A DNA stretch of 51,699 nt from Candidatus Woesearchaeota archaeon (lineage in GTDB: Archaea > Nanobdellota > Nanobdellia > Woesearchaeales > UBA10216), in assembly GCA_016188145.1 (NCBI GenBank), contig JACPIJ010000060.1, positions 1-51,699 on the forward strand, given 5' to 3'. Under the pieces are notes generated by a model that was given only the letters and a program-made list of their open reading frames with translations, was not told the DNA's origin and made no database searches. This document shows positions 1,588-41,665 of this stretch, piece by piece. How positions within the stretch are numbered: position 1 is the stretch's first letter; every line of letters begins with the position of its first letter. The position numbers were made by a program, and so were the translations under genes.

Positions 1588-1593
1588 ATTCGG

Positions 1594-1624
1594 TTTTTGA
1601 TCAACCTTTTTCTTAAAAAGGTTG
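1594..1624 (-). repeat. hairpin + ATCAAAAAC element, short copy A
   Basis: Minus-strand reading: CAACCTTTTT-AAG-AAAAAGGTTG-ATCAAAAAC-CGAAT-ATG. A 10-bp stem lies between a TTTAAATA box (1640-1647) and the GT4 start codon. Confidence 0.8.
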
Positions 1625-1679
1625 TGCTGCAGATGCAGATATTTAAACGTGTTTGTTGTTTTTGGCTCATCTGTTATGC

Positions 1680-3518
1680 TCAGAACCCTATTTGCCTTTC
1701 AGCTCGTCCCAGAACATTTTTTCTCGCTATGTACGGGATTGTGTCAAGAAAATTTATTGGATGTACGAACCTAATCATTCCAGGCAGGCCGTAAGAGGCA
1801 AGTGTTTCTGTAGCTTCGTGCTTTGTTATTAAGTTAATTCCTGTTTCGCTTGTTGCCCGGTGTTTTCTTTCCATGAGATAGTCCTGCATTGTGTTGGTTA
1901 TTGTTTGAAATGCTGTGATTCCATGGGAGTGGGCTTCTTTGCCAAGGCGTATTTCTCCAGTTATGATCAGCTCGTGTACCACCAGAGCAAACATTACTGG
2001 CCGAGCGTCTATCCTGACTCCGTATGTCCTGTTTATTTCTTCCGCCAGCCTTTTGTATTCCTGTGAGTCTTTGCTTATCATTAGCAGCTGTACTATCGGC
2101 GGCAGGGCCTCCCCCATCCTGGTCAGTATTTCCAAGGATGCTCTTATCTGGCCCCCTGTGCCGTACCTTTTATCAAGCTCTTCTGACATTATTTTATCTG
2201 CAAGCTCTGAGGAGAACTCATTGCTTTGTGCAAATAGGCGCCTGTCGCCTCTTTCCGCATTTCCTGTCACTGTGGCAACTGAGTTGTGCTGGTTATAAGG
2301 CCGCGAAAGCGACTGCAGCCTGCTGAGAACATATTCTAGAACAAGAAAACCACTGTGTTGCGGCACCGCTTCCCTCAGCATCATCTTTTTGAAAAGGTTG
2401 TCATATATTGTTTCATACCTTTGCCTTGTTGATTCCAGGTACTCAGTGACAACTCCAGTGACTGCTTCGATTACGACTTCGCGCTCTCTCACCAAGTCAG
2501 TAACTGTTATTACCCTGCCTTTGAAGCCTTCAGGTATGGCTGTTACTAATCCTCTTGACAGTCTTGGGCTTGGCCTTCTTCCTGGGCCAACAACTGCGGG
2601 CTTGGTTTCGTCAGCAGCTTGTTCGGCGCTTGTTGTGCCCGTGCTGAGCACCATTGGGGAGGCAAACTTTTCTATTACCCTTCCGATGTATTCTCGTACG
2701 AGCCTGCTGATTTCTTCTGGGTAGTGTATCTGCACTGGCCTTCTGCGCTTATGCCCAGTTTCCTGAGCGGCTCTTTCCTTCGCGACAGCCGCATCTGCCA
2801 CGGTTTCAGCCTTTGCTGTCATTCCGCTCAGCATGTAGCCCACTATCTTTCCCACAAGGTCCCTGTAGAGCCAGTATGCTGCTCTTGGGTCTTTCGGGTA
2901 GGCCTTTTCGTCAAAGCTGCCTGTGCTTTGCTCCCATTTCAGAAATTCGGGGTTAATTGCTGCGAGTTGTTCAAGGGCTGAGTTTTCAAAGGCTTCTGCC
3001 TCGTAGTCGAACTCTTTCGGCGCTACCGTGGGTCCTGTTATCCACTTATAGATTGTTTGTTGCGTTCTTGCTTTTACACGGCTGTGGACAACCGCTGCCA
3101 TCTGTCTCAGCTCTTTACTGCTGAACCCTTGCCCTTCGCTTGCCAGCTTGTCTTCTAAGCCTTCTCTGCCCATGCCAAGGCAGGGCAGTTGCAATCCGTC
3201 TTTAGCATTGAGCTTCCACAGCCCTGTTATTATCAGGTAGCTCAGCATCGTTTGCCTGCGCCCGTAGTCTTTGAAGAGAAACCGCAGCGCTGCCTGCATC
3301 CTTTCTTCCTTTTCAATTGAAGCGAAGGCTTCTTTGTAGGTTATGCCTTGGATTGCTTGCCTGTGCACAAGGGGATGGTGGCCCTGCCTCACGTCGCTGC
3401 CCACGACTTTTAGGTAAACTCCCTCCCCCTTAAGGTCGCCTATGTCCAGAAAGGCCGGCTTGTCTCCCTCGGTCAGGAAGGTTCTTCCAGCAACCTCTAT
3501 CATGGTGTCCAGCGGCAT
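1680..3518 (-). CDS. hypothetical cytoplasmic protein, 612 aa, no recognisable domain
   Basis: Long uninterrupted ORF with complex composition and no TM segments. A CATTAAATACC TATA-like box lies about 28 nt upstream of the ATG. I could not place it in any family. Confidence 0.6.
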   Translation of the reverse strand: MPLDTMIEVAGRTFLTEGDKPAFLDIGDLKGEGVYLKVVGSDVRQGHHPLVHRQAIQGITYKEAFASIEKEERMQAALRFLFKDYGRRQTMLSYLIITGLWKLNAKDGLQLPCLGMGREGLEDKLASEGQGFSSKELRQMAAVVHSRVKARTQQTIYKWITGPTVAPKEFDYEAEAFENSALEQLAAINPEFLKWEQSTGSFDEKAYPKDPRAAYWLYRDLVGKIVGYMLSGMTAKAETVADAAVAKERAAQETGHKRRRPVQIHYPEEISRLVREYIGRVIEKFASPMVLSTGTTSAEQAADETKPAVVGPGRRPSPRLSRGLVTAIPEGFKGRVITVTDLVREREVVIEAVTGVVTEYLESTRQRYETIYDNLFKKMMLREAVPQHSGFLVLEYVLSRLQSLSRPYNQHNSVATVTGNAERGDRRLFAQSNEFSSELADKIMSEELDKRYGTGGQIRASLEILTRMGEALPPIVQLLMISKDSQEYKRLAEEINRTYGVRIDARPVMFALVVHELIITGEIRLGKEAHSHGITAFQTITNTMQDYLMERKHRATSETGINLITKHEATETLASYGLPGMIRFVHPINFLDTIPYIARKNVLGRAERQIGF

Positions 3519-3713
3519 CGTGATTTGGTTAAAAGAAATGGTATTTAATGCTTTTTCACAGTAGGCATTGTTACGCTACGGGTGTAAGCTTTATCCCTTC
3601 TTTAGCATTCCTCAATCTCCTGTATTCTCCAGCCAGGGCTTTTAGTTATCTGCCCCAATAGTTGGCTAAAAATCGGACTTATGAGGTAAAGCGGGTTGCG
3701 ATGAGCTATTGCT

Positions 3714-4463
3714 TCAGAAGAACATTGGCAATAAGTATGCCAGTCCCAGTCCGACAGCTATCGCGCCGATGCTGAATGAGATTATCCAAAACCACGTCGT
3801 TCCGCCTTTTCGCAGGAAAATCCAGACCGGAATTAAGCTCAAAAATTGGACAAGGAAGTCGTTCCAGAAGTAAAAGCTCGTTACCATTCCTTGAAATCCG
3901 TAGCCGAAGTGCCCGAAAGCCCCTCCGGTGTAGTATCCAAACGCTGCAGGAATGACAGTATAGCCGATTATTGGCCCGCACACCTCAATCAGCCTCGCCC
4001 ACAGCGCAATCCTGATTCCGGCCGCCTTCTGGTCAAACGTCAGAAGGAAGAGGGTGCCTAAGCCGATGCCGTAGAACATGGTGTCGTACAGGCCGCCCCT
4101 GAACCCTGTCCTTGCCCCGCCGAAAACGACTGCCAGAAGTCCGTTGGCAATAAGCACCAGGGAAATCAGGGCGAGAAATTTGCTCCTGTTCCACTTCAGC
4201 CTTATTCTTGGCTTCAGGAATTCCACGAACAGGCCAAGCGCAATCAGGTAATAGGCCAGCTGGAACGTCAGGCTGAGGAAAATCCCCCTCGTTGCAGGGC
4301 TCATTCCCTTGATGTAATCCGGCAGTTCATGCGCTCTTGCTTCAGAAAGGTTGACAAAGCCTATGGTGCTGGCAACTATCCATGATATAATTGCTGCTAT
4401 GAAAAGCAGGAGAAAGCCCTTTACGATTAGCTTTTCTTTATCCACAGCTCTAGCCGTTGCCAT
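3714..4463 (-). CDS. polytopic membrane protein, unknown function
   Basis: 249 aa with at least 6 hydrophobic helices. Its start overlaps the stop of the upstream TIM-barrel gene by 14 nt, which suggests translational coupling. Confidence 0.6.
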   Translation of the reverse strand: MATARAVDKEKLIVKGFLLLFIAAIISWIVASTIGFVNLSEARAHELPDYIKGMSPATRGIFLSLTFQLAYYLIALGLFVEFLKPRIRLKWNRSKFLALISLVLIANGLLAVVFGGARTGFRGGLYDTMFYGIGLGTLFLLTFDQKAAGIRIALWARLIEVCGPIIGYTVIPAAFGYYTGGAFGHFGYGFQGMVTSFYFWNDFLVQFLSLIPVWIFLRKGGTTWFWIISFSIGAIAVGLGLAYLLPMFF

Positions 4464-5214: not shown

Positions 5215-5265
5215 TCATTCACCTTTTTTTAACAATGCAAATAGTCATTTGCCGCAGCTGTTGTA

Positions 5266-5309
5266 ATAGCAAATCTCGGTAATTTTTGAACTTTTGCGAG
5301 ATTTGCTAT
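5266..5309. repeat. perfect 13-bp inverted repeat with an 18-nt loop
   Basis: ATAGCAAATCTCG (5266-5278) pairs with CGAGATTTGCTAT (5297-5309). It lies between the DUF2304 stop and the TIM-barrel gene start. Confidence 0.8.
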
Positions 5310-5325
5310 AATGCCAAGACTATTT

Positions 5326-5760
5326 TCACTTCTTCCGCTGCGTTTTCTGATTGACCTCTCCACGTCGTCTTTGGACGACGGGACCAGTCGTGCTTGCACG
5401 ACTTGGTTTCTTAAAGAGGTCATGCTGTGGTTCCTGCGCCCTTTCGAGTGCGAGCTGCCTAACGAGCTCTTCAAGGCCTTTCTGCGTTTTCCTGACAACG
5501 CGGTAGGAATAGAACGTAGCCGCTATGAGGAACATGAAGCCCAGTATTATGAAAAGGTCCAGCTTTCTTTCAAGCCTTAATGCAGCTGTTATTGGGTTGA
5601 TGACGTCGGGGAAAAGCGAGATTGCGCTGAATGACAGTGCAAACAGGCTCCAGAATGCCCACTCGTTTATTGTGAATTCCTTTTTCTTCCACTGGAGGAA
5701 GCTCATGTAGAGCATGAATGCGCCGAATACTATTCCGAAGACCTGTACGCCAAGCACCAT
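5326..5760 (-). CDS. DUF2304-family small membrane protein (usual GT2 partner) with an element-encoded C-terminal tail
   Basis: MVLGVQVFGIVFGAFMLYMSFLQWKKKEFTINEWAFWSLFALSF...FIILGFMFLIAATFYSYRVV fits DUF2304, and it lies directly downstream of a GT2 gene. The last ~30 codons are read straight through repeat copy E. Confidence 0.65.
   Translation of the reverse strand: MVLGVQVFGIVFGAFMLYMSFLQWKKKEFTINEWAFWSLFALSFSAISLFPDVINPITAALRLERKLDLFIILGFMFLIAATFYSYRVVRKTQKGLEELVRQLALERAQEPQHDLFKKPSRASTTGPVVQRRRGEVNQKTQRKK
5343..5422 (-). repeat. hairpin + ATCAAAAAC element, long copy E (carries a two-hairpin insert)
   Basis: Outer stem TGACCTCT/AGAGGTCA encloses CCACGTCGTC-TTTG-GACGACGGG and ACCAGTCGTGC-TT-GCACGACTTGGT. 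It is flanked by the (plus-strand) TTTTCTGAT motif. Confidence 0.85.
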
Positions 5761-5804: not shown

Positions 5805-6467
5805 TTACCTGGCTATTTTCCACCACAGCATCTTCAGCACGATGTTTACCCCGTCAAAGACTGTCGTGCCCTTGTACCTGTCTGCGTATATGGTTTTTAT
5901 TGGGAGCTGCGCGAATTTGAGCCTGTATTTTCCTGTTTTTGCAACTATCTCTGATTCTATGCTGTAGTCGTTCGACATGAGGCTCAGCTTTTCGTAAGCT
6001 GACCTGGTCAGGGCTTTGTAGCCGCACTGGGTGTCTTTCACGTTTATGTGGAATAGCAGCCTAATGACGGCGTCTATGAACCAGTTGCCAACCTTCTTCA
6101 CGATTGGCATGTTCTGGCTTCTCCTGTCCCGGTAGGTAAACACGATGTCGTTGCCTTTCAGCGCCTCAATCAGCCTTGGCAGGTCTTCCGGGTCGTGCTG
6201 CCCGTCGCTGTCCATGAAAACCAGCGCCTCGCAGCTTTTTCCGTAAGCATAGGTGCAGCCAGTCCTTAGGGCTGCTCCTTTCCCGAGGTTGATAATGTGC
6301 CTCAAAACAATCACGTCGTGCTTTTCTGCTACAGCTGCCGTGCCGTCCCTTGAGCCGTCGTCCACCGCGACTATTCTTTTGTTCGCAGCGAATTTCTTTG
6401 CTGCTTCAAGCACGTTGCCCAGGTTTCTTCCCTCGTTATGGGCGGGTATTATTACGTAGAAATCCAT
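5805..6467 (-). CDS. GT2 glycosyltransferase (dolichyl-phosphate hexose synthase-like)
   Basis: MDFYVIIPAHNEGRNL..., VAVDDGSRDGT and DSDGQHDPEDL (DXD) motifs. The ORF track extends it to 6551, but that would overlap the aglB stop. In-frame ATGs at 6509, 6494 and 6467 are all possible; 6467 gives the family-typical N-terminus. Confidence 0.85.
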   Translation of the reverse strand: MDFYVIIPAHNEGRNLGNVLEAAKKFAANKRIVAVDDGSRDGTAAVAEKHDVIVLRHIINLGKGAALRTGCTYAYGKSCEALVFMDSDGQHDPEDLPRLIEALKGNDIVFTYRDRRSQNMPIVKKVGNWFIDAVIRLLFHINVKDTQCGYKALTRSAYEKLSLMSNDYSIESEIVAKTGKYRLKFAQLPIKTIYADRYKGTTVFDGVNIVLKMLWWKIAR

Positions 6468-6532
6468 TTTTGAGTTCGTTTTTGCAGTTGCCATTTTGAC
6501 AATTTGCATTTTGCCGATCTTGCAGGATATGT

Positions 6533-9500
6533 TTACTCGAGCGTATCCCACTGTGCCTTGTATACGTACACGTTTGTTCCTGTCAGGCCGCGGTTGTGCG
6601 TGAGCAGCTTGAAGTGCTTGAGGCCCTTTCCTTCCATGAAAAACATCCTGGTGAACATCCCCGCTGCCTGCTCAGGGCTTGCCACGGCGGCATAATAACT
6701 GCTGTAGCTGTTACTGCTTCCAAGCCATTCTCCCTGGGGCACAAGTATCACTGAGAGCTGTTGCGGGACTGTGTCGTTTGCGTACGCCCTTTCCGCAAAT
6801 TCTTCCGTTCCTGTTTCGTTTGTCATGTATACAAATGAGATAGGATGCAAAACCTTTCCCTCTTGCGCGGGGAAATAGGCGTCGTTTGTGGTGAGGTTGA
6901 CTGTTAAGCCGTTGCCGCAACTCACAAGCTTGTCCTGCTCGTTTTCATTGCTGGCAAGTATTGCGCACCCGCTTACGTCTCCGGAGAAGCTTGGCCAGGG
7001 CGCTATCCAGCTATTCGCCTCGCGGTCATCCTTTATTCTTGCAATCTCATTGTATGTCGCCTTCGCCTTCTCTTCAGAATAGTTGAACATCTCCTTCATC
7101 GCAGTTACAGCTTCTTTTTGGCTTTTGCCTTTCAGGGTTTGCCATGCTATGCCTTTTTCGAAGTCCCAGCTTCCAAAATGCCCCCACACTCCGGATTTGC
7201 CTATCATGTCTTCTGACGCTATTACGTAGGCCTCCGGAGGTGTGCAGTGCGTGTACTTCAGCACGTTTTCTGCCTGACCTTGTGTCAGGTTGTAATCCAG
7301 AACCAGCAGTGTTTTTGCATCCTGCTTTAACGGAGTTGCCGTCAGCCTGTAAAGTATTTTTATAGTGGCGGCAAAGTCATTTTTTGCCTTATTCAGTTCG
7401 TCGAAGGCTATGGTGCTGCCGCAGTCAAGCATCCTCAGTATGCCTGCCGCTTCTGTCTCGTTTTTTGTCATGAAAAACTTCCCAACCCAGTGAGCAGGAG
7501 GATATTGCTGGGTTGTGCCGTCAAACGTAACCCTCCTGTCGGTTATGGACTTGAAGTGGTGCCCGAAGTCCCACCACGAGGTAATTATTGCATCAGGTTT
7601 GGAATCGTCCTGTATTGCAGTGAGTGAGCCGTACCACGCGTCATTAATTATTGGCACATCATTGTTGGCTATGGAGTAGGCTTTCTTTGTAACATCTGTT
7701 GAATAGGTTACTGTTGCCAGCATTACGAATACTGCTGTCGCAGCCGCAAACTTATTCAGCTTTAGGAAATTTTCGTTTATCCACATTAATAGCCTGAAGA
7801 TAAGCCCGAGCGTTGCGCCGAATCCAAGCCCCGCCATGGGAGCCAGCAGCAGCACGAATCTTATGCCTTTGGTGCTTGCGTAGATTGTGCCTGCAAACCA
7901 CACCACCACTAACGTTGCAAAGAATACCGAGTACAGCGCTTTTTCTTCTTTCGGCACTATCGCCTTTAGCTTGTTCTTGAGAAAGCCAAAGTTTGTTATT
8001 GCAACAGCGGTAAGCATTGCAGCGCTCAAAAATGAAAGCCAGAAGATGTTCGGCGTTATGCTGTTGACTACTTGGTCAAAGTTTCCTTCGTTAAGCTCGG
8101 CTACTGTCGTGAGCACGTTGGGCCAAAACGATGCGCCAACGACCGGACTTTTCAGCGTCTGCACGCCAAGTGCGAGCAGGGGCGTTTCCAGGAACTTGTT
8201 AAATCCCGTGAAGAGTGTTATGAGTGCTGCCGTCGAAAAGAAAAAGACCGCCGTCGGCATTATGAAACGCTTCCCAACGTTTCCTGCCAATATAAGCCTT
8301 AGCGTCTTGCCTAAACTCAGCTTGGTGCCTTCAACAAGCTGCGTGAATACGCTAACGGCAGCACCTGCCAGTATTGCTGCTGCCGCGGCACTGAGGATGA
8401 ATAGGAAAATAAACCACCACCCTCCCCAAGCCATGCTGTAAAGCGCTACTGAAAAACCGGCAAACAAGGCAAGCATAGTTCTCCATATAGCCCTATGCTC
8501 GTGGATTGCCTGCACGAACAGCCAGACTGAAAGCACGGCAAAAAAGATTACCACCTGGTCGTTATCGCCATGGATGGTCCTGTTGACGTAAGCCGCGTGC
8601 AGCGCAGCCATCAGGGCTCCAAAGAATCCTCCTACGGTGCCGGCAATTTTCCTTCCTATCAGGAATATTAGCAGCGCTGTTAGGCTTGTAAAAAGTACAG
8701 AGTATATCATGGTCTGGACTTCCCAAAGCGTTACGGAGTGGTTGAAGAACCTTACAAACTTGTAAAGGTATGCGATAAAATATGGAAAGAAGTAGTCCTG
8801 GGGTGAAATCTCTCTCCCAAGCGGCGCAACCTGATGGTTGTCCCATTCCAGTCCGTTCCTTATTTCATCCCCAATGTGGCCTTTTTCAACTATGTTCAGG
8901 GCATACCTGTTCCAGTAGTAAGGGTCAATGTCCGGCGAGTAGGGTCTGCCTTCCTCATCCCTGTAGAAATCCTTTATGAACTCTGAAGTGCTTTTTATCT
9001 GGCTGCTGACGTCAATCTGCTGCCCTGCATACTGACCTGTTTTGAAAATGTATGTTTTGCTGCTCCTTGCCTTGTTCATCTCATCAGCCAAAATCTGGCT
9101 TTTTCTCTTGTCAGGAAGGTTTGGGTACTGTGCGTTTATTGCGCCCTGTATGTCATTTTGCATGGTATTGTAAACAGAGTTGCTCGCCCAGTCCTCAGCG
9201 AAACGCAGCTGCGACGGCTGCGTCCTGACATCGGCAGTTAAGCCAATAACTATCAGAATTCCTAAAATTGGTAGTATGACAGAGCCCTTTTTTCTTAAAA
9301 ATTCGGCAATGGAATTGAAGTCCAGTGAGACCTCGTCCCCTTCAGTCACACCATGCGGTTTTTCTCCTTTTTCCTTTTCTTTTCCTTCCCTCTTGACTCT
9401 GAAAAGTCCCTTAATGCCGGAAGCCAGCCTCCCAATATCTATTTCAGCTTCTTCCCCTTCCTTTTTTCCTTCTGCTTCTGCGCTGCGGCTGCCGTGGTGC

Positions 9501-9697: not shown

Positions 9698-9774
9698 GAA
9701 TCTGCCCCGTCAAACCCGGTGATGCAAGCTACTGCGGCAACTCAGGGCGTATTTAAATGTGTTGCGGATTTTTG

Positions 9775-9854
9775 TTTTTTGATTGACCTTTCCACATCGT
9801 CTTTTGACGATGGGACCCGTCGTGCTTGCACGACGTGGTTTAGAAAAAAGGTCA
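9775..9854 (-). repeat. hairpin + ATCAAAAAC element, long copy D (carries a two-hairpin insert)
   Basis: Outer stem TGACCTTT/AAAGGTCA encloses CCACATCGTC-TTTT-GACGATGGG and ACCCGTCGTGC-TT-GCACGACGTGGT. The TGA stop of the reductase gene is part of the outer stem. Confidence 0.85.
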
Positions 9855-11087
9855 GAACCACGCTTTTTTAGCGAAGAGCAGCAGCTTTGGCTCTCTCATC
9901 AAAAGCTTGAGCGCAAATCTTGACGGCTGGTCGCGGTCGTAGCTTTCAAGAATAGCTTTGTTCTTTTCCCTGGCGAAAGTTTCAACAAGCCTGTTGTAAT
10001 CCTCGTTGCTGAACCTTTCCATTGCCTTTCTCATGAGGAGTGAGAGGTACAGGTCCATCCCCATTCTCTTCTTCCACAGCTTTTCATAATCGGCATTTTT
10101 CGTTATCGCCTCCGCCACCGCCTCTGCCCCGATCAGGCTTTGGTTTATCCCTCCGAGCGTTGGCGCTTTCACCATTGTTGCCGCATCCCCAACAAGCAGC
10201 ACCCTGCCGTCCTTTGTTTTTGACTTTAGCCTTGGGTCATACAGTGGTATTGGGCCGGCCTGCCTACCTGCTATCTTCTTCTCGTAATCCTTGCCGGCCA
10301 CAGCTGTCAGGAACCGCTTGAAGTATTGGCTGGCTTCTTTTTTCGCGGCAATACCCACTCTTGCAATTTTCTCATTCTCGGGCACAACCCAGGCTATGCC
10401 TTCCTCGCTTGGGTAGAAGTCAATGATGTTATCGTTTTCAACCGGTATGGTTGCCTGCAGCCCGACGTAGAACTGCCTGTTTCCAAACAAGCCCGCAGAT
10501 TTTGCAACCGCGCTTATGGGCCCGTCAGCACCAACCAAATAATTGGCTTCGACGGTTTTTGTTTCGTTTTTTATTTTGTCTTTCACAGCAACCATTACTT
10601 TTCTCGTTTCCCAATTCGCTTTCGAGCGAATGGGCCCAATCGGGCTCTTCCCGATTTGTGTTTCTTTTTCACTGCCGCTGCCGCCATTATTGCCATCTTC
10701 AAACGTTTCAAACGTGTGGTTGGCAAAGAATTTTGCCCCTGCGTCTTTAGCCAATTCAGAAATGTGCCTGTCAAGCCCTGCCCTGTCTATAATAATGTCG
10801 TTCTTCAGCTTGACCTCAACAAATTCCTTATTTGGCGCAATTATCCTCGCCTTTGCAATCCTGTTGACAATTAATTCCTTCGGCAATTGCAGCCGTTGTG
10901 AAAGGACATCGCCGGTTATGACCCCTGTGCAGGCTACCGGTTCCCCTATCGTTCCATGCTCCTCAAACACCCGCACGTCCATCCCTGCTTTCGCAAGAAG
11001 GTAGGCTGAAAATCCGCCAGCTGGCCCTGCGCCAGCAATCGCTATTTTTTTGCTTTCCATATTTCCATCTCCGTTGCTGCCATGCAC
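9852..11087 (-). CDS. geranylgeranyl reductase family FAD-dependent oxidoreductase
   Basis: KIAIAGAGPAGGFSAYLLAKAGMDVRVFEE (GxGxxG), GEPVACTGVI and LLVGDAA motifs. A Gly/Ser-rich insertion of about 50 aa is present. Confidence 0.85.
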   Translation of the reverse strand: MHGSNGDGNMESKKIAIAGAGPAGGFSAYLLAKAGMDVRVFEEHGTIGEPVACTGVITGDVLSQRLQLPKELIVNRIAKARIIAPNKEFVEVKLKNDIIIDRAGLDRHISELAKDAGAKFFANHTFETFEDGNNGGSGSEKETQIGKSPIGPIRSKANWETRKVMVAVKDKIKNETKTVEANYLVGADGPISAVAKSAGLFGNRQFYVGLQATIPVENDNIIDFYPSEEGIAWVVPENEKIARVGIAAKKEASQYFKRFLTAVAGKDYEKKIAGRQAGPIPLYDPRLKSKTKDGRVLLVGDAATMVKAPTLGGINQSLIGAEAVAEAITKNADYEKLWKKRMGMDLYLSLLMRKAMERFSNEDYNRLVETFAREKNKAILESYDRDQPSRFALKLLMREPKLLLFAKKAWF

Positions 11088-14803: not shown

Positions 14804-15954
14804 CCTGCAATGGCCTTGGCTGCAGTAATCACGGCATAGATTATCCCGAACAGGAACATAAATGCAAGAGCAATTGCCACAAGCCTTGGCATGTTGATTG
14901 CGTATTCCGGTTTTACCTCAGCCTTTTTCTTCTTCGCGGCAATATGCATTGCTACCAGCAGGATTCCTTCTATGCCGCCAGCCACTGCACCTGCAACTCC
15001 CAGCACGGCAATGAAGTTCTTCAAGCCGAGAAGGAAAGCCAGCAGGGGGATGAAGCATGTCAGTGCCCACGCGGTCTTCCTTTTAAGCCTGTAGTCATAA
15101 ACGTACATCTCCTTTAGCGCAAGCCCAAGTGCTATGAACGAAGTGCTCATTGCCAGCACTGCAAAAAGGTTTGCGAACAGAATCATTCTTTCCCCAAGCA
15201 TTTTGCCAATGGTTACAGTTGCCAGCTGGCCTGTTGCTGCGCCGCTTATTCCAACAACAGCCACAGCAAAGAGCGAATAAAGCACTATGGGCACAAGCCC
15301 TCCCAATATTATTGCCCTTTTGAGAAGCTTTCTGGCTTTTCCGCTTCCGAGCTCTTCCCTCATTTCTGGTATGGCAACCGCTCCCAGAAAGGCAAATAGC
15401 ACGACACCATACGGCACAAACAGGTTTTGTATGCTTGTTCCAGTGAAGTTCGCCGCAGAGAACCTGCCTGAGTTTGCAGCGACTACTATTATAATAGATA
15501 TAACGGCAATGGTTAAAAAAGACAGCAGCAGCTCGGATTCCTCAACAGCCTTCAGCCCGAAGTATACTATTGCCGAGGCAGCTGCAAAAAAGATAATGCT
15601 CCAGAAAAATGGCGTGAGCTGGGGGTTTATGGCGTTAAGGGCATTCCCCGCTCCTATAATGTAGGCGAGCAGGGCTCCGTAGATGCCAAAAACCATTGCA
15701 AGCGCCATGAGCCTCTTGCCATTCTTGCCAAGATATTTTTCCGCATAGCCTGTCAGCTGGTGGTTTCCTTTGGTTCTAAGCACCACCTCCCCAAGCAGCA
15801 GGTTGACCAGCATCACGGCAGCGCCTATTATAATAATGTGCAGCAGCCCAACAGCCAAGCCTGACTTGGCAACAACATATGGTATGCCCAGCACACCGGC
15901 TCCGATTGTGGTGCCGACAAGCGTTGCGACTGCCTCAAGGAACCTCTTTTTCAT
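14800..15954 (-). CDS. amino acid permease (Trp/Tyr permease / AAAP-like family)
   Basis: 384 aa with about 11 TM helices. The N-terminus EAVATLVGTTIGAGVLGIPYVVAKSG is typical of this transporter family. Confidence 0.75.
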   Translation of the reverse strand: MKKRFLEAVATLVGTTIGAGVLGIPYVVAKSGLAVGLLHIIIIGAAVMLVNLLLGEVVLRTKGNHQLTGYAEKYLGKNGKRLMALAMVFGIYGALLAYIIGAGNALNAINPQLTPFFWSIIFFAAASAIVYFGLKAVEESELLLSFLTIAVISIIIVVAANSGRFSAANFTGTSIQNLFVPYGVVLFAFLGAVAIPEMREELGSGKARKLLKRAIILGGLVPIVLYSLFAVAVVGISGAATGQLATVTIGKMLGERMILFANLFAVLAMSTSFIALGLALKEMYVYDYRLKRKTAWALTCFIPLLAFLLGLKNFIAVLGVAGAVAGGIEGILLVAMHIAAKKKKAEVKPEYAINMPRLVAIALAFMFLFGIIYAVITAAKAIAG

Positions 15955-15977
15955 ACATTATTACCCGCATCTAAACA

Positions 15978-15985
15978 TTTAAATA
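15978..15985. promoter_or_regulatory. shared, near-palindromic TATA box (TTTAAATA) for the divergent permease gene and tRNA-Trp
   Basis: It lies 24 nt from the permease ATG (15954) and 26 nt from the tRNA 5' end (16012). TTTAAATA-type boxes recur about 25 nt upstream of many starts in the window. Confidence 0.6.
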
Positions 15986-16011
15986 TGTTGCTGCAAAGCC
16001 TTAAATCCTGT

Positions 16012-16231
16012 GGGGATGTAGTATAAACACCCGCGGCTCTTGAGTAGTGCTGCGGGATGGTACAGCCCGGCATTATGGGGGCCTCCAGCGATTGGAGAAC
16101 TGAGCCAACGGCAAACCGAAGGCGATGACCGACCCATAGTAGAAAGCCTCGGATCTGGGTTCAAATGACCTTTTTTTTGCGAAAAATGTCAATCAAAAAA
16201 CGCAAGAAGGCTGAAGGTCCCAGCATCCCCA
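16012..16231 (+). tRNA. tRNA-Trp(CCA) interrupted by three introns (D-arm, canonical 37/38, T-loop)
   Basis: Exons 16012-16024, 16064-16088, 16145-16166 and 16219-16231 join to a 73-nt cloverleaf: GGGGAUG-UA-GUAU-AGCCCGGCA-UUAU-G-GGGGC-CUCCAGA-GCCUC-GGAU-CUGGG-UUCAAAU-CCCAG-CAUCCCC-A. The acceptor stem is a perfect 7 bp and the T-stem a perfect 5 bp. The D-loop has A14, G18G19 and A21. A TATA box lies upstream and a T7 run downstream. The first intron boundary is ambiguous between 9/10 and 13/14 because of the GTAT/GTAC duplication. Confidence 0.8.
16166..16200 (+). repeat. hairpin + ATCAAAAAC element, copy F, inside the tRNA-Trp T-loop intron
   Basis: TGACCTTTTTTTTGCGAAAAATGTCAATCAAAAAACG aligns with the minus strand of copy C (TGACCTTTTTAGAAAAAAGGTCAATCAAAAACG). 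The similarity continues into CGCAAGAAGG versus CGAATAAGG. Confidence 0.7.
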
Positions 16232-16282
16232 CCTTTTTTTCCAAAAAGCTTATATAGTGCTTTTGCCTTTACAAAGTTCAGC

Positions 16283-16414
16283 ATGAAAACAGTAACGGTA
16301 TCAGAAGAGGAGTACAAACGTTTGAAAGAGAAGGAGAAGGTAGATTCCGAAATCCTAGAGGACATAGCACGAGGAGTTAAAGACATATTGACTGGCAAGG
16401 TCAAGGAGATTTAA
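16283..16414 (+). CDS. 43-aa antitoxin-like mini-protein
   Basis: My translation: MKTVTVSEEEYKRLKEKEKVDSEILEDIARGVKDILTGKVKEI. A CTTATATAG box lies about 25 nt upstream. It is too short for the ORF track. Confidence 0.35.
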   Translation: MKTVTVSEEEYKRLKEKEKVDSEILEDIARGVKDILTGKVKEI

Positions 16415-17429: not shown

Positions 17430-20400
17430 TTGTCTTTTAACGCGAAGTCGCTTAAGCCGCTTTTTTCACAGAAAAAGGGAACCATTTACAGCCTTGTTCT
17501 GCTGATTGCCGTAGCGGTAATGGTTGTAGGCATATTGTCGGTTAATGCTTTAAACGCAAGAAATGTTACAATAACTCCCAAGTGGGTGGGTTCTAGTTTC
17601 AATCAGTCCTTTAACATTACTGTTAGCAATGTTGCTGGCAGTGCTGTAATCAATGTAGTCAGGATTACTAAACCAAACGATTTTGTCGACATATACTGTA
17701 TTAACCCCGTGACTACGGGGTGGACTTGCGCAACCAACGGCACGAAACAAGGGTTTGTGTATGTGGAATTCACAGGCGGCACCATAGCTGCTGGCGCTTC
17801 TGACAGCTTTAACATTACCTCAACCGCTGCCAGTGCTGCCGGTGATTACACGTTTCAGTTGAGGACAGAGGATGACGCTGCCGCTATTAACTCAACCAAT
17901 CTCAACAACAACGTTTCTGTCGACACACGTCCTCCACTGCTTGTTTTGATGAACGTTTCTGACGGCACCAGAATCCTTAGCAGCGGGGAGCACCTTAATG
18001 GCTCGCTTTTCCTGAGCAACTCCACTGGCAGGGTTACCATACTGTTTAACGCAACCGACAACGAGTCGTCAGTGCACTCTGTAACGCTTTACTACAACGC
18101 CACAAATAGCACGTCAATTTCTGAAGATGTTATCTTAAAGCCTAACCACCAAACAGCAGGCACTTATGATTTGGCATATGCAATGTCCAACTTATCATTC
18201 GGGCCTGGCTCTTTGTGGAACGCAACGCTTGATGGCGGCAACATCCTCAACGGCACAAGGATATTCTTCACAGTTGTTGCCAACGACACGGTAAGAAACG
18301 GCAACGTGAGCAACTCCACCTACTGGCCGAATTCTGGCACGGCTTACAATTTTACTATAGACTCGGCTGCCCCAAGGTTTGAGGACGTTCAGGTTTTAAA
18401 CGCCAGTCAGCTTACCACCAACACGGCAGGCAATGCCATTAACACCACTAAGACGTTTGGCAGCCTTGGCGGGCTTGAGTACATAATAAACAGCAGCCTG
18501 CTGCTTAACGTCAGCGCCCTCGTCAGCGATGGCGGAGGCTCAGGCGTTGTGCGTGTCCAGATTATGAACAGGACAGGCAACTTTGTGGACATGAACCCGA
18601 TTACCGGCACGAATGGCTCAAGTGGCCAGACAACGTGGAACCTCTCGCTCTACAACATAACCGACCTGGGGCAGCGCGTTGGCGGCTTCAATGGCGATGG
18701 GTTATACAACCTCAGCTTCAGGACAACCGATAATGTCAGCAACGTCGTCAATAATAACTTCACCGTTGAGGTTGACGACGCCCCGCCAACAGGCTCTGTT
18801 TCCACAAACATAACAATTAATGGCAAGCTTTCAGAAGGCAATGTAACACTGGACATCTCTACAAACGCATCCTTCAACATCAGCCTTAAGACAACCAATA
18901 ACATAAACAACATTACAAGGAACGTGAGCGTGTTTGGCAACAGAGGGCTGGTGTACAACTTCACTTTCGGCAGCGGAACGACTTCAGGCACTTCAGTCTG
19001 GAACCTGACCCTGTTAAACGACTCATTGGTTAACCTGAGCAACTTCTGCGACGCAAGCACGGGCTTTACGGCTGCTGACGGCTCGCAGTGTAACCTCCAA
19101 TTCAACTTCTCAGACGTCCTTGGAAGGATGAACAGCTCAATAAACCTGACAATAGCTGTTGACGGGGTTGCGCCAAACGTTTCGATAATCAGCCCTGTTT
19201 CCCTTACAACTAACTATACCGGTACAGTCCTGATTAACGCCTCAGTGAACGATTCTGTCGGGCCATTAAGGAACGTCTCGTTCAGGTGGAGGATGAACTC
19301 GTCAACAATTACTGACGGTGACGAAGGCCTTAATGCGAGCAACTGGATGCCCCTCAGTTTGACATCAGGCACCAACAGCCAGTTCAACGCTCGCGGCTAC
19401 TGGTCAGCCACGCTCACAATCAGCAGCTTGACTGACACGAATTACAGCATAGAAATCAACGCAACCGACAGCGGCGCAAGGCAGAACACTACGACAAATG
19501 TTTCGAATGTCATATTTGACTCTACAATTCCGCAGAACATCACCATAGTTGCGCCCGGCTCGAACAGCTTCCTCAGGGTTAACTTCACAGTTGGCATAAA
19601 CGCCACCGAGAGGATATCGGGGCTGCGCAACGTGAGCGTAAGGCTTGAAAACGCAACCCATACTTCTCCGTGGGTTGGGATGAATCAGGAGATTGTTGCC
19701 CTTTCATCTGTTACTACCATTGCCACAACTGCAAAATACAACGCATCCAGGTTTAACCTCACCCATGTTGGTGAGCAGGCCATGAACGCAAGCAATGGCA
19801 ACTTCACCTTGCGGCTTAACGTCACAGACACGGCAGGCAACCAGAACACCACTGTAACGATAAACTTCACAATAGACACGGTTCTGCCCACGAATATAAC
19901 GGTAATACAGCCGTTAACCGGCATAAACAGGACAGGCAACTTCACCATTAACCTCTCGGTTAATGAGTCAAACATTGATACTGTCTGGTTCAGGTGGGTT
20001 AATGACAGCAGCGGCGCTACAGCGGGCCATAGGGGGCCATGGGTGCCAATGACTCAAGGCACTGTCGGCATGTTCAACAGCACCTTTATCAACCTGACCG
20101 TTGCTCCGGTATTGCTTGATGGCAACTACAGCATAGAGTTTAACGTTACCGACAGGGCGGGCAACCAGAACGCCTCCACGCTGCTCAACAGCACTCCCTT
20201 TGCCCAGCTTGTCCTTGACAGTAATGCCCCGCTGATTATTGCTACCGGCTCCCTTGCTGGCAACACCTCAAACCTGACCGGCAACTTTTTTGTTAACCTC
20301 ACGATAAACGACACCAGCACATGGAACATGACCGTTGGCAAGCTTACTACCAGAAACATTAACGCCTCAGCGTTCAGGCTTGAGAACACAACGTTTAACA

Positions 20401-35520: not shown

Positions 35521-35901
35521 TGTAGTACTCCATAGCGTACTCTTTAAAGTACGCCACCTTTTTAATGTTTTCGCTTTTGCACTCCACAGTTGCAGAACCA
35601 GCTTATAAGCCCTAGCCGCACCTGTCCAGTGTCCAGTGAACATCATATTTCGGAAATCTTTCATTACTGCCGAAAATCTTCCACCATTTTACTCATGGAG
35701 GAGGTCAAAAAAGCCGAAGAAGTCACTGGACACAATTCCGCCATGCGGAACATAGGCAGTTACGCTGCCTATGCGCATCGGCTTTGCCGATGCTGTGTGC
35801 AATCAGCGTAAACGATTTGCACCTTCGCCAGCGACCCAGAAGCTAATCCCATAACTCCCCCTGTCAAGCCCGGATTCCAGAAGCTTTTGCCTGCCTAAAT
35901 C

Positions 35902-35953
35902 TGTATGTGCACAAATAACCGAAATATTTATATATTGTGTGCACATACAATAT
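35902..35953. promoter_or_regulatory. fic promoter: TATA (TTTATATA, 35927-35934) bracketed by an inverted repeat of TGTGCACATACA
   Basis: TGTATGTGCACAAAT (35902-35915) is the reverse complement of TGTGCACATACAATAT (35938-35953) apart from small differences. A third, direct copy lies at 36905-36920. Confidence 0.6.
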
Positions 35954-36895
35954 GGTGTGGTCTACATAGAAACAATAAAGCGGAATAATAAGGAATATTA
36001 TTACTTTACCAAAAATGTAAGGCTCAACTTAAACAAATGGAAAAAAATCAGGATTTTTTTGGGAGATAAAAAACCTTTAAAGGAAGAACTAAAAAAACAT
36101 GCTAAAGAAATAGAAGATAAAGCAAAGCCATTCTTGAAATTATCAAACCGCGCTTACCTGTCAGAGCATGACGCAGAAACTTTGCAGGATTTAAAAGAAA
36201 GTTACAGCACATGGCTTAAGCAGATTCCCAAAAGTGTTAAAGAAAAGCTGAATGAAGATTTTGTAATTAGGTTTACCTATCATTCCAATGCAATTGAAGG
36301 CAATCGGCTGACATTAAGGCAAACTGCCCTTATCCTAAAAGATAAAGTCATCCCTTCTGGAGTGCGGGCAGAGGATTATAATGAAGCAATAAACGGGAAA
36401 GAGTGTTTGGATTATATAAAATCATATAAAGGCGAATTAAACGCTAAATTGCTTGAAAAAGTAAACGGAATTCTTACTAAAAATACCGGCGTGGTTTACG
36501 GTGGAAGAATGCGATTCTTTGATGTGCGGATAGAGGGCTCAGCACATGTTCCTCCTCCTCACAACGAAGTCAAGAAACACATGCTTAATTTCTTTAAGTG
36601 GTATAGTGCAAATAAAAATAAGCTGCGCCCCTTTGAATTAGCTGCTTTGGCTCATGCAAAATTAACATGGATACACCCTTTTGAAGATGGGAATGGCAGA
36701 ACTGCGAGAACACTTATGAATTTTATTCTGATGAGAAAAGGATTCCCTATGTTCTTTATCCCTTTTGAGAAGAGAGAAGAATATTATCAATCATTGGATC
36801 TTGCTGATAAGGGCAATTATAAGGAATACGTCTCCAGGATGCTGCGGTTGATTATAGATCAAATAAGAAGTTACGGGCACAGCAAAAAACAATAA
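35939..36895 (+). CDS. Fic-domain protein (AMPylase/phosphocholine-transferase family)
   Basis: Canonical Fic motif HPFEDGNGRTARTLMN. The gene is AT-rich (a 60-nt sample I counted was about 35% GC). The start is uncertain: GTG at 35939 or at 35957, and the latter fits a leaderless start about 25 nt after the TATA. Confidence 0.85.
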   Translation: MHIQYGVVYIETIKRNNKEYYYFTKNVRLNLNKWKKIRIFLGDKKPLKEELKKHAKEIEDKAKPFLKLSNRAYLSEHDAETLQDLKESYSTWLKQIPKSVKEKLNEDFVIRFTYHSNAIEGNRLTLRQTALILKDKVIPSGVRAEDYNEAINGKECLDYIKSYKGELNAKLLEKVNGILTKNTGVVYGGRMRFFDVRIEGSAHVPPPHNEVKKHMLNFFKWYSANKNKLRPFELAALAHAKLTWIHPFEDGNGRTARTLMNFILMRKGFPMFFIPFEKREEYYQSLDLADKGNYKEYVSRMLRLIIDQIRSYGHSKKQ

Positions 36896-36904
36896 TCCTT
36901 AAAT

Positions 36905-36920
36905 TGTGCACATACAATAT
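36905..36920 (+). repeat. direct repeat TGTGCACATACAATAT (second copy, downstream of fic)
   Basis: Exact 16-nt match to 35938-35953. Confidence 0.9.
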
Positions 36921-38796: not shown

Positions 38797-38801
38797 AATC
38801 G

Positions 38802-38833
38802 TTTTTTGATAAACCTTTTTTCTAAAAAGGTTT
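38802..38833 (-). repeat. hairpin + ATCAAAAAC element, short copy B
   Basis: Minus-strand reading: AAACCTTTTT-AGA-AAAAAGGTTT-ATCAAAAAA-CGATT-ATG. It lies between a TTTAAATA box and the metallophosphoesterase start. Confidence 0.8.
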
Positions 38834-38855
38834 TGTTGAGGCGCTATTTAAAACT

Positions 38856-41585: not shown

Positions 41586-41634
41586 CCAGCCAACAAGAAT
41601 AACTTCGGCATTTAAATAGGTATTCCCTTATTCG

Positions 41635-41665
41635 TTTTTGATTGACCTTTTTTCTAAAAAGGTCA
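41635..41665 (-). repeat. hairpin + ATCAAAAAC element, short copy C
   Basis: Minus-strand reading: TGACCTTTTT-AGA-AAAAAGGTCA-ATCAAAAAC-GAATAAGG. It lies 21 nt upstream of the TTTAAAT box of the nuclease gene, at the left edge of the lower-GC BNR gene. Confidence 0.8.

Follow-up and report, generated by a model that had tools for sequence, protein, structure and literature searches.

Two genes in a DNA stretch from Candidatus Woesearchaeota archaeon (contig JACPIJ010000060.1) have a small palindrome placed between their TATA box and their start codon, and similar palindromes occur elsewhere in the same stretch. We asked what this repeated hairpin is. An earlier note on the sequence had left three readings: a palindromic operator over the transcription start, a 5'-leader or terminator RNA hairpin, or a MITE-like mobile module. 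We compared the copies with one another and with loci collected from other genomes; the window is the whole stretch that was analysed (51,699 nt). Literature searches returned no description of this element.

Copies of the element in the window

Six copies were found in the 51.7-kb window: three short (A, B and C), two long (D and E) and one, F, on the plus strand (Table 1). The short copies that the earlier note had listed were all present, the pattern ACCTTTTT-N3-AAAAAGGT giving three matches against 0.02 expected from shuffles. The module measures about 33 nt and reads NR-ACCTTTTT, loop, AAAAAGGT-YN, then ATCAAAAA, which is a 10-bp A/T-rich hairpin followed by a tail. That the tail is conserved also held true, but its invariant part is the 8-nt ATCAAAAA, and not ATCAAAAAC as first proposed. 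This octamer was unchanged in 72/72 non-identical archaeal copies, its eighth A being present in all of them although it lay outside the search pattern. The ends of the element are sharply defined, and sequence information was confined to the stem and tail, with none 5' of the stem. Scored with a covariance model trained on copies from other genomes, A reached 55.6 bits, B 55.7 and C 53.5 (E about 1e-10), and F 31.4 bits.

Table 1. Coordinates of the element copies and associated features in the window.
Feature	Position (strand)	Sequence and structure	Site
Short copy A	1592..1624 (-)	CAACCTTTTT-AAG-AAAAAGGTTG + ATCAAAAAC; hairpin 1602-1624, tail 1594-1601; palindrome centre 1613	Between TTTAAATA (1641-1648) and ATG (1587) of GT4 gene
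Resident box at A	1641..1648 (-)	TTTAAATA	Upstream of copy A; displaced by the insertion to 56 nt from ATG
Long copy E	5342..5422 (-)	86% identical to D	3' end of DUF2304 gene
Long copy D	9774..9854 (-)	Outer stem TGACCTTT/AAAGGTCA around twin-hairpin insert, then ATCAAAAAAC; repeat family D5	Between GGR gene stop and AglB TATA box
Putative tRNA-Trp(CCA) gene	16012..16231 (+)	Three introns	
Copy F	16166..16201 (+)	TGACCTTTTT-TTTGCG-AAAAATGTCA + ATCAAAAAAC; one stem mismatch	T-loop intron of putative tRNA-Trp gene
Short copy B	38801..38833 (-)	AAACCTTTTT-AGA-AAAAAGGTTT + ATCAAAAAAC; hairpin 38811-38833; palindrome centre 38822	Between TTTAAATA (38846-38853) and metallophosphoesterase ATG (38796)
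Resident box at B	38846..38853 (-)	TTTAAATA	Upstream of copy B; displaced to 52 nt from ATG
Short copy C	41633..41665 (-)	TGACCTTTTT-AGA-AAAAAGGTCA + ATCAAAAAC; hairpin 41643-41665	Divergent intergenic region, 16 nt upstream of DUF460 gene TATA box (41611-41618)

The long form is 81 nt and the short form 33 nt, a 48-nt twin-hairpin module being nested in the stem of the former. Both had been assigned to one family, and this was confirmed at the site of long copy E, where the syntenic genome L058/L121 holds the 33-nt short form. Copy D was predicted to fold into a Y shape (z -6.9), an architecture also present in L053 and L069. The inner module (GTCGTGCAAGCACGAC) had no exact match in the loci collected from other genomes; with a relaxed anchor search, L053, L069 and L001 proved to have long forms that are homologous or analogous. 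The outer 3 nt of the 5' arm of copy D are the TGA stop codon of the GGR gene (9854-9852), and copy E is an 81-nt in-frame insertion 18 nt before the stop of the DUF2304 gene, whose Pfam domain stops at residue 108/144.

Covariation and pairing of the stem

The stem ends of the short copies do covary (CA/TG, AA/TT and TG/CA), as had been claimed, and the two outer pairs were complementary in 70/72 non-identical archaeal copies. An alignment of 31 sequences contained 29 double-sided stem changes compared with 8.2 ± 2.5 in shuffles (0/500 shuffles reached 29), and one-sided changes numbered zero. Perfect stems made up 83 of 98, mismatches of G.T (2) were no more frequent than those of A.C (3), and no tolerance of G.U wobble was seen on either strand in the 98 stems or the 31-sequence alignment. 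Neither covariation through G.U intermediates nor a match to an Rfam family, which would mark a structured RNA, was found. Such wobble-free, perfect covariation indicates that the hairpin matters as DNA, and from the sequences we infer that it is most likely recognised as a single-stranded hairpin by a trans-acting enzyme, in the manner of REP/RAYT or IS200/IS605 ends. Templating of the outer stem pairs by the target was considered and rejected, as the same GCA flank occurs with AA, CA and TG pairs, which shows that the pairs are not copied from the target.

These data bear on the suggestion that the element acts as RNA, be it a hairpin in the 5' leader, a stabiliser of 3' ends or a signal for processing such as a tRNA-minihelix-like substrate cut beside the AUCAAAAA tail. 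Its orientation bias follows transcription, copies abut tRNA ends on the hairpin side, L064 has an antisense tRNA in the place of the hairpin before ATCAAAAA, and the long forms fold as stable three-way junctions with compensatory changes. However, besides the wobble-free stems and the lack of an Rfam match, transcription directed by the upstream TATA box would begin within the hairpin itself, and not at the same point in L058 as in the window. In addition, about 1/4 to 1/3 of copies are antisense to their neighbors, and some lie within coding sequence. A leader or terminator RNA hairpin as the primary function was therefore left unsupported, and we consider a role as RNA improbable.

The element varies in presence between syntenic genomes

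Checking the orthologous loci revealed both filled and empty sites in syntenic genomes, with presence/absence variation at every window site tested (A, B, D and E). Copies A and E are common to the window and L058/L121; L122 has neither of these, nor copy D. At the orthologous site in L058/L121, copy A was identical over 37/37 nt although the flanks of the compared genomes are about 77% identical; such full conservation would not be expected of junk DNA and suggests a host function or gene conversion. Copy B was absent from three orthologous junctions (L117, L118 and L119), which read TATA + 23 nt + ATG. The empty copy-D site in L122 reads GGTTCTGA|TAAATCCGCAA, and at the E site, also empty in L122, taking the element out restores the homologous DUF2304 C-terminus. 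Extra copies were seen in L119, where one within the metallophosphoesterase coding sequence adds 11 amino acids in frame, and in L122, where one is fused to the start codon of GGR. Counted together, at least six insertions have occurred independently across five genomes, over about 15 kb of synteny; this count and the filled and empty sites support the mobile-module reading. The contexts were the TATA-ATG gap, a stop codon, two coding regions (in frame) and a tRNA intron; the element tolerates any harmless context, intergenic spacers included.

Because the genomes compared are only 70–85% identical, the junctions were defined to ±2 nt. At this resolution, which a very short duplication could escape, no target-site duplication was visible at the filled and empty junctions of B and L119. 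In one pair the empty site reads GCAACA|ACGATG and the filled site CAACA-element-ACGATTATG; in the other the empty GGCAGCA|ACGAAT corresponds to the filled AGCAGCA-element-TTCCCG. GCA lies directly 5' of 15/74 copies (1.2 expected), and the flank preference is GCA before the element and ACG after it, with empty sites of GCA|ACG and ACA|ACG.

A mobilising enzyme was sought in several places. No transposase, integrase, HUH nuclease or reverse transcriptase was encoded by the window (Pfam, 30 ORFs), and none was found between inverted copy pairs, the intervening genes of L044 and L003 being ordinary, or on the single viral contig with the element. A tblastn search of 916 kb of loci with an approximate IS608 TnpA query was also negative. 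We conclude that the element is probably a miniature palindromic insertion element, about 33 nt long, non-autonomous and REP/MITE-like, with no mobilising enzyme found in these searches.

The sequences also bear on how copies are made. In a SINE-like route, the intermediate would be a small hairpin RNA, A-rich at its tail, that is turned back into DNA, or a tRNA-intron-type RNA that is reverse-spliced into transcripts and fixed by reverse transcription. The 3' tail is indeed A-rich, the sense orientation is favoured, 5'-truncated partial copies lie beside full ones (L081, L090, L107, L108 and L076), and three tRNA-intron copies begin 0–2 nt past the 37/38 splice site. Yet antisense copies are common, and a non-exhaustive search of the collected loci saw no reverse transcriptase. 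Target-primed reverse transcription usually leaves a target-site duplication, and none was visible here; the perfect, wobble-free stems fit DNA copying better. An RNA intermediate thus appears quite improbable.

Position of the element relative to promoters and genes

The layout described for A and B was found as TTTAAATA, 11–15 nt, hairpin, ATCAAAAA(A)C, 4–5 nt and ATG. In C and D the element is upstream of a TATA box, as had also been stated; the tail ends 16 nt from the box, which places the end of the hairpin about 25 nt away. The distance from palindrome centre to ATG is exactly 26 nt in both A and B, and the centre is A/T-rich. Elsewhere, 9–10 of 75 copies lie at +23 to +26, and about 65/75 are not at promoter distance from a start codon. 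The empty orthologues share the TTTAAATA box at B (TAAAGTTTTAAATAGCGCCTCA is the same in L117); at empty sites, those of L122 included, the TATA box lies at -31..-24. In L058 the hairpin is as far from the ATG as in the window, but the spacer from TATA box to hairpin differs in length by 12 nt.

These positions are hard to reconcile with an operator for a dimeric transcription factor, the first of the three original readings, by which the palindrome would be a repressor site downstream of TATA in A and B and an activator site upstream of it in C and D. The palindrome is perfect and in A and B spans the point where transcription would be expected to start; SurR and TrmBL1, which are dual regulators, have sites at comparable positions relative to TATA and start. 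Against this, the element is absent from the orthologous promoters (L117–L119 and L122), its distance from TATA is not conserved, as the 12-nt indel shows, and other copies sit in coding sequence and tRNA introns. Moreover, the long forms put 48 nt between the half-sites, the invariant tail is asymmetric, the flanking genes are functionally unrelated, and the freely varying stem positions covary, whereas protein half-sites do not require pairing. The operator reading is contradicted by these observations, and we consider it highly improbable.

For a mobile element, the fixed spacing may instead reflect which insertions survive. Among insertions between TATA box and ATG (A, B and about 8 elsewhere), persistence seems to be limited to those with the T5-loop-A5 core at -31..-22, and this core would most likely take over as the TATA box of a leaderless transcript. 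The T-run of the element may also help to end the upstream transcript. Judging from the spacing, the element plausibly replaces the displaced TATA box in A and B; the resident TTTAAATA upstream of A, being still conserved, may still be the working promoter. The T-run is 5–8 nt long, and several copies lie downstream of a stop codon or of a tRNA 3' end; intact T5-6 runs also occur within coding sequence (L119 and L121). A Shine-Dalgarno reading of AAGGTTGATC was rejected, this motif being 19 nt from the ATG and present in only one subfamily.

Portable gene punctuation could then be the primary selected function, with a compact terminator and, for the gene that follows, a TATA-like core with initiator spacing supplied in one piece, and with spread driven by usefulness in tiny, tightly packed DPANN genomes. 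The exact -26 spacing recurs in independent insertions, copy A is perfectly conserved in diverged genomes, and in co-directional gene pairs sense copies outnumber antisense ones 14:4. The element fills the gap between co-directional genes in L113 (2 and 6 nt spare), L101 (3 and 10 nt) and L003, and copies lie 1–2 nt past tRNA 3' ends in L019, L081 and L092. However, about 65/75 copies are away from promoter distance, those in coding regions (E and L119) and tRNA introns are where neither function applies, close relatives lack the element at the same junctions, and a TATA box or oligo-T terminator does not need stem covariation. Punctuation as the primary function is thus a possibility that we hold only tentatively.

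A copy within an intron of a putative tRNA-Trp gene

Copy F forms the first 36 nt of a 52-nt T-loop intron (16166-16217) in a putative tRNA-Trp gene, the other two introns being in the D-region (about 38 nt) and at the canonical 37/38 position (56 nt). Excision of 16166-16217 restores the T-arm CTGGG-TTCAAAT-CCCAG, and the gene was predicted to fold with z = -4.1, closed by a 10-bp terminal stem. In the unedited window this tRNA was called neither by ARAGORN nor by Rfam (gathering threshold, whole window), and Rfam at permissive thresholds on 15950-16300 and 9740-9880 gave nothing relevant; ARAGORN called tRNA-Trp only after manual removal of the T-loop and D-region segments. A candidate bulge-helix-bulge was read by eye (H = UUCA/UGAA, 3' bulge GGU) and is relaxed on its 5' side. 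The loci collected from other genomes contained no homologue of the tRNA-Trp gene. In three tRNA introns, copies of the element begin 0–2 nt past the 37/38 splice site.

Several unusually long tRNA introns consist in large part of the element, which in this resembles the mobile or transposed tRNA introns of archaea (PMC4090602). It differs from them in that the element alone has no bulge-helix-bulge motif, and in that most copies are outside tRNA genes. A model of tRNA disruption invokes a 1.8-kb recombinase-encoding element (PMC3293823), unlike the 33-nt hairpin described here. The element could be a source of new or enlarged tRNA introns.

Distribution across genomes

In the genome collection, the exact 23-base pattern was matched by at least 115 loci; by our own estimate fewer than 2 would be expected by chance. 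The 24 core bases are identical in at least eight archaeal lineages, covering many archaeal phyla, and the element was also found within hairpin clusters of rumen Clostridia; Rfam on four of the bacterial loci detected one tRNA and nothing else. About 62/75 copies are outside long ORFs. Clusters and inverted pairs were observed, for example in introns of L003 and L085 and in the bacterial hairpin clusters. Partial 5'-truncated copies, consisting of the 3' arm and tail or of tail repeats, adjoin full copies in L081, L090, L107, L108 and L076.

Two further origins were examined and rejected. Among 2.9 million viral contigs a single locus was found, without informative genes, so the element is not virus-borne. 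A CRISPR-repeat origin was discarded as there were no arrays with unique spacers and never more than three copies per locus, the tandem units in L012 and L111 repeating an identical 'spacer'. A metagenome scan for closer relatives, using a 22-mer common to the filled and empty B loci, returned 0 matches, and the window metallophosphoesterase had no exact database record.

Relationship to known mobile palindromes

REP/REPIN sequences are bacterial repetitive extragenic palindromes that are mobilised by RAYT, an IS200-like Y1 HUH transposase. The element shares with them a 20–40 nt palindrome with a covarying stem and a short invariant single-stranded motif beside the hairpin, many copies that are mostly intergenic and often directly follow a stop codon, the occurrence in clusters and inverted pairs, a lack of coding capacity, and copies kept at orthologous sites. 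It thus agrees with REPs in size, covarying stem, copy number and extragenic location. The invariant motif, however, is 3' of the hairpin (ATCAAAAA) and not a 5' GTAG, the stem is A/T-rich rather than G+C-rich, and copies are also found inside coding regions and tRNA introns. No RAYT (Y1 HUH) gene was detected in the window or in 916 kb of loci with an approximate TnpA probe. REP-type elements are normally lineage-specific, whereas this sequence is common to archaeal phyla and Clostridia; identity over 24 bases across phyla and in bacteria is unusual for them and counts against the REP/MITE-like reading.

With the ends of IS200/IS605 elements and with their non-autonomous derivatives, the PATEs, it has in common hairpin-based ends, strand asymmetry and a duplication-free insertion, occurring 3' of a short target (GCA|). 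The tail includes TCAA, and its complement includes TTGAT, which may resemble the right-end cleavage site of IS608 and the target of ISDra2. It differs in being a single 23-nt hairpin within 33 nt in total, not separate left and right ends, and in having no TnpA or TnpB nearby, the approximate TnpA query having been negative over the 916 kb.

Of the MITE-like module proposed in the earlier note, the mobility stands, with at least six insertions; the formal identity as a MITE does not, in view of the 33-nt length, the missing duplication and the absence of an autonomous relative. Like MITEs, the element is non-autonomous and multi-copy, has inverted-repeat termini (10-bp arms) and no coding capacity, varies in presence from one relative to another, and may bring promoter or terminator activity to new sites. 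Its 33-nt short form is far below the usual 50–500 bp (the long form is 81 nt), and the element shows no target-site duplication at ±2 nt resolution and has no related full-length insertion sequence, only ordinary genes being found between inverted pairs.

The small repetitive hairpin elements of organelle genomes, such as those of sponge mitochondria (PMC2800124), likewise invade the intergenic regions of very compact genomes, differ between close relatives and have no identified transposase. They are reported to diverge in structure and composition between lineages (PMC2800124), whereas the present element has 24 bases that are the same in different phyla, a defined tail and a preferred target.

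Implications for DPANN genomes

The tiny genomes of DPANN archaea are usually said to contain little mobile DNA. In this DPANN archaeon, insertions of the element have remodelled promoters, extended proteins and populated tRNA introns. Annotation pipelines should take account of the element, since it lengthens ORFs, looks like an operator and keeps standard finders from calling a tRNA gene. That its sequence is nearly the same in different phyla and in bacteria implies either that a mobilising enzyme has been widely transferred or that a host factor is conserved. A more ambitious proposal, which we regard as speculative and rather unlikely as a whole, is that a single 33-nt element, nearly the same in archaeal phyla and some Clostridia, moves without duplication into GCA|ACG targets and without a linked transposase, maybe through a conserved host ssDNA/RNA enzyme, and serves DPANN archaea as portable gene punctuation and as a generator or enlarger of tRNA introns. 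If the element does seed or enlarge tRNA introns, it would bear on the origin of the non-canonical tRNA introns of archaea, and if the core of the palindrome works as a TATA box, it would be a natural example of a mobile archaeal promoter.

Copies of the Element and Its Distribution

The earlier note had placed three short copies, A, B and C, of a hairpin element in the window, and inspection of the window sequence bore out these positions. For the pattern ACCTTTTT-N3-AAAAAGGT, the window has 3 matches where dinucleotide-preserving shuffles predict 0.02. A repeat finder grouped A, B and C as a single family and the 81-nt long copies D and E (86% identical) as a separate one. A covariance model trained solely on copies from other genomes scored A, B and C at 53–56 bits (E ~1e-10), and copy F at 31 bits. 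Neighboring genes in the window include AglB/STT3, GT2 and GT4 glycosyltransferases, digeranylgeranylglycerophospholipid reductase (GGR), a MoxR-VWA pair and DUF460; orthologues of window genes bear the names Candidatus Woesearchaeota or Nanoarchaeia, which makes the window a contig of a DPANN archaeon.

Features in the window and in loci from other genomes (L numbers)
Sequence	Feature	Position	Strand	Remark
Window	Short copy A	1592-1624	-	
Window	Hairpin, 13-bp stem, ATAGCAAATCTCG...CGAGATTTGCTAT	5262-5310	-	DUF2304/AP_endo spacer
Window	Long copy E	5342-5422	-	DUF2304 gene
Window	GGR-to-AglB junction	~9698-9851		long copy D
Window	Long copy D	9774-9854	-	
Window	TTTAAATA box	15979-15986		~30 nt upstream of tRNA-Trp(CCA)
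Window	Structured RNA fold	16012-16231	+	z -4.1
Window	Copy F	16166-16201	+	sixth copy
Window	Putative T-loop intron	16166-16217	+	52 nt; ARAGORN after excision
Window	Putative D-region intron		+	~38 nt; ARAGORN after excision
Window	Putative canonical 37/38 intron		+	56 nt; ARAGORN after excision
Window	Three very large ORFs	17430-21647, 23469-27305, 31020-34826	+	1268-1405 aa
Window	Low-GC island	35900-38000		GC 0.35 vs about 0.48 elsewhere
Window	Fic/DOC-family protein	35939-36895		in island
Window	Short copy B	38801-38833	-	
Window	DUF460 ORF	41079-41585	-	168 aa
Window	Short copy C	41633-41665	-	
L121	GGR-to-AglB junction	1932-2860		929-nt insert, two small ORFs
L123	GGR-to-AglB junction	7132-7364		~170-nt insert, long palindrome
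L064	Antisense tRNA gene	~6422-6525	-	
L065	Hairpin cluster	3990-4201		
L094; L063; L012; L075; L111	Decayed 5'-end duplicates	~7219-7300; ~4340-4440; 3650-3770; ~6050-6125; 3938-4190		

Besides the Fic/DOC-family protein, the low-GC island encodes an unannotated 206-aa ORF, and it is possibly foreign DNA. The three very large ORFs contain repeats of ~375 nt as well as tracts of Gly/Ser-rich GGTGGTGG, and probably encode surface proteins.

When one genome per species was scanned for exact matches to ACCTTTTT-N(2-6)-AAAAAGGT-NN-ATCAAAA, at least 115 loci were found, where we estimate fewer than 2 by chance for the collection scanned. Archaeal hosts among the matches listed were Woesearchaeota (several genomes with 3–8 exact copies apiece), Micrarchaeota, Aenigmatarchaeota, Altiarchaeota, Undinarchaeota, Methanobacterium, Methanosarcinales, Methanomethylicaceae and others; the bacterial hosts listed were rumen and gut Oscillospiraceae/Eubacteriales, where one hairpin in a cluster consists of these same 27 bases and the others are unrelated and G+C-rich. 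Such REP/BIME-like clusters of several different hairpins occur in many rumen and gut Clostridia (L065, L008, L010 and others), one of the hairpins being CG-ACCTTTTT-GAA-AAAAGGT-CG followed by ATCAAAAACTTT, whose core matches that of the archaeal element exactly. The clusters of MAG RGIG4054 lie at contig ends, so assemblies break there.

Among 72 non-identical archaeal copies the bases before the stem carried no sequence information, all 72 had the tail ATCAAAAA (its eighth A lying outside the search pattern), and conservation was lost two bases past the tail; the element is thus a sharp-edged module of 33–35 nt. Often a decayed duplicate of the downstream gene's 5' end lies upstream of it, comprising a Shine-Dalgarno sequence, ATG and 5–12 codons, or a promoter and the initial ~15 nt of a tRNA. 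This group of loci also holds the element in tandem repeats, with a unit of 68 or 111 nt.

The Stem Covaries, Probably as a DNA Hairpin

The outer two stem positions vary freely (CA/TG in 24 copies, AA/TT in 17, TG/CA in 16, GA/TC in 7, with rarer types besides), yet they are complementary in 70 of the 72 archaeal copies. In a gap-free alignment, 29 double-sided stem changes were counted against 8.2 ± 2.5 in shuffles (0/500 as high), and no one-sided changes. Protein half-sites would not require freely varying positions to covary. The operator reading suggested earlier is refuted. A functional RNA would accept G·U pairs; in a relaxed set 83/98 stems were perfect and the mismatches (G·T 2, A·C 3) showed no G·T excess. 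An RNA hairpin lacks support as the main role of the element. The simplest reading would be that selection acts for a DNA hairpin. Templating of the outer pairs by the target was ruled out, as AA, CA and TG pairs are all found beside an identical GCA flank.

Orthologous Sites Are Filled or Empty

Judged from sequence comparison, presence and absence at orthologous sites is the decisive evidence, and was found at the A, B, D and E sites. The B site, at the VWA-to-metallophosphoesterase junction, is empty in the syntenic relatives L117, L118 and L119 (75–85% protein identity), which read TAA-AG-TTTTAAATA, 23 nt, ATG; the window has the same TTTTAAATAGCGCCTCA, then the element and ACGATT-ATG. A further relative, L122, has the entire GGR-AglB-GT2-DUF2304-AP_endo-GT4 cluster with no element at the A, D or E sites. 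Its empty A site reads TTTAAATA, 24 nt, ATG, and its empty D site GGTTCTGA/TAAATCCGCAA. For copy D in the window, the resident stop codon supplies the stem's outer 3 nt. Copy E lies in frame within the DUF2304 gene, 18 nt ahead of the stop, and its excision in silico gives the C-terminus ...LERAQEPQQQRKK, homologous to ...LERVKQPEQKRAKKK in L122.

The syntenic genome L058/L121 (70–77% identity to the window) also has the element at the A and E sites. At A the two match perfectly over 37 nt, with a TATA-box spacer differing by 12 nt. The E site holds a 33-nt short form in L058/L121 and the 81-nt long form in the window, with one stem pair compensatorily changed (T·A to C·G). L119 has a 33-nt in-frame insertion within the metallophosphoesterase domain (+11 residues), missing in the window, L117 and L118, and in L122 the GGR start codon is fused to a copy missing in the window and L121. 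All told, no fewer than six independent insertions occurred in five genomes within ~15 kb.

Insertions cluster at the GGR-to-AglB junction, a hot spot with different inserts in L121, L123 and the window and none in L122. The separate 13-bp-stem hairpin is missing from the orthologous L058/L121 spacer and looks like another small hairpin indel of unrelated sequence.

The occurrence of both forms at the E site bears out the earlier proposal that short and long forms are one family, and makes the extra 48 nt either a secondary insertion into the hairpin or a module since lost; these 48 nt could in turn be a mobile module nested in the element. Long copies fold as a Y-shaped three-way junction of the outer stem and two 6–7 bp hairpins (z -5.4 and -6.9). 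The same architecture occurs with related GTCG-type hairpins in another Woesearchaeota genome (L053) and with unrelated hairpin sequences in Methanovirga (L069).

Insertion Signature and Mobilization

The clearest filled/empty junctions showed no target-site duplication: GCAACA/ACGATG is filled as CAACA-element-ACGATTATG, and GGCAGCA/ACGAAT as AGCAGCA-element-TTCCCG. GCA directly precedes 15/74 copies (1.2 expected) and CAGCA 7/74, whilst ACG is the most frequent triplet past the tail (12/74). Orientation relative to genes is biased, not absolute: co-directional gene pairs hold 14 sense and 4 antisense copies, and the downstream gene has the element's orientation in 28 cases and the opposite in 14. 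Mere tolerance may account for some of this bias. By our reading, all sense-strand frames are open except for a TGA in the TG/CA subfamily, which is the stop codon used in copy D, and the antisense strand has TGA in one frame.

Filled and empty sites support the mobility of the MITE-like module that had been proposed; its size, absent target-site duplication and want of a parent element set it apart from MITEs. Like REP/RAYT and IS200/IS605 systems, it has a hairpin beside an invariant single-stranded motif, duplication-free insertion, a short specific target and strand asymmetry. This likeness favors a trans-acting enzyme that would handle single-stranded hairpin DNA, a route we rate as possible but on the unlikely side. 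Unlike REPs, the element has a differently placed invariant motif and an A/T-rich stem, lies also inside genes and introns, and is identical across phyla and domains. RNA-mediated spread is a minor rival, favored by partial copies (3' arm and tail, or tail repeats) beside full copies in L081, L090, L107, L108 and L076. In the window neither a transposase or integrase nor an HUH nuclease or reverse transcriptase was found, inverted copy pairs enclose only ordinary genes, and a TnpA probe of the 916 kb of all loci collected gave no match. Among 2.9 million viral contigs only 1 bears the element, with no informative genes.

Insertions at Promoters and Gene Ends

Window promoters have a TTTAAATA box centered 25–28 nt from the start codon in leaderless genes, and 54–68 nt away in others, which have a Shine-Dalgarno sequence. 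The layout described for A and B holds: TTTAAATA, 11–15 nt, hairpin, tail, 4–5 nt, ATG. In both, exactly 26 nt separate the palindrome center from the A of ATG, which places the T5-loop core at -31..-24, the TATA-box position in empty orthologues. In other genomes an ORF starts at +23 to +26 for 9–10/75 copies, a sharp peak, and between the window and L058 the hairpin-to-ATG distance of copy A is fixed while the TATA-to-hairpin spacer varies. Together these suggest a survivorship effect, in which an element landing between TATA box and start site would persist if its A/T-rich core can serve as TATA box, giving a leaderless transcript; the core may thus have replaced the TATA box at copies A and B. 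The original TTTAAATA box remains conserved and could still drive a 19–31 nt leader lacking a Shine-Dalgarno sequence. The T5-8 run may terminate upstream transcripts, but intact T-runs within coding sequence (L119, L121) indicate that termination is not efficient everywhere.

Copy C lies ~50 nt upstream of the window DUF460 start. Syntenic orthologues of this gene in L118 and L119 encode 399–419 aa, and the window gene may be N-terminally truncated.

Links to tRNA Genes

Several copies lie 0–2 nt from tRNA gene ends, the hairpin side always toward the tRNA. In L003, L057 and L085, anticodon-loop introns of unusual length hold one or two copies, starting 0–2 nt past the splice site. In L064 an antisense tRNA gene is directly followed by ATCAAAAA, the tRNA taking the hairpin's place before the tail.

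Copy F, with 16 nt pairing with its 5' arm, makes up the T-loop segment of the structured RNA fold. Removing this segment and ~38 nt of the D region left a tRNA-Trp(CCA) that ARAGORN recognized, with the further canonical intron. Its apparent load of three introns explains why neither ARAGORN nor Rfam called this gene in the unedited sequence. Downstream of the gene is a T7 run, and by our reading a relaxed bulge-helix-bulge (UUCA/UGAA helix, GGU bulge) can be drawn at the putative T-loop intron. Introns are, at least, safe harbors for the element.

We file the element among miniature palindromic mobile elements. Its interest lies in a mobilizing enzyme not found, its distribution, the apparent promoter replacement and the link to tRNA introns.
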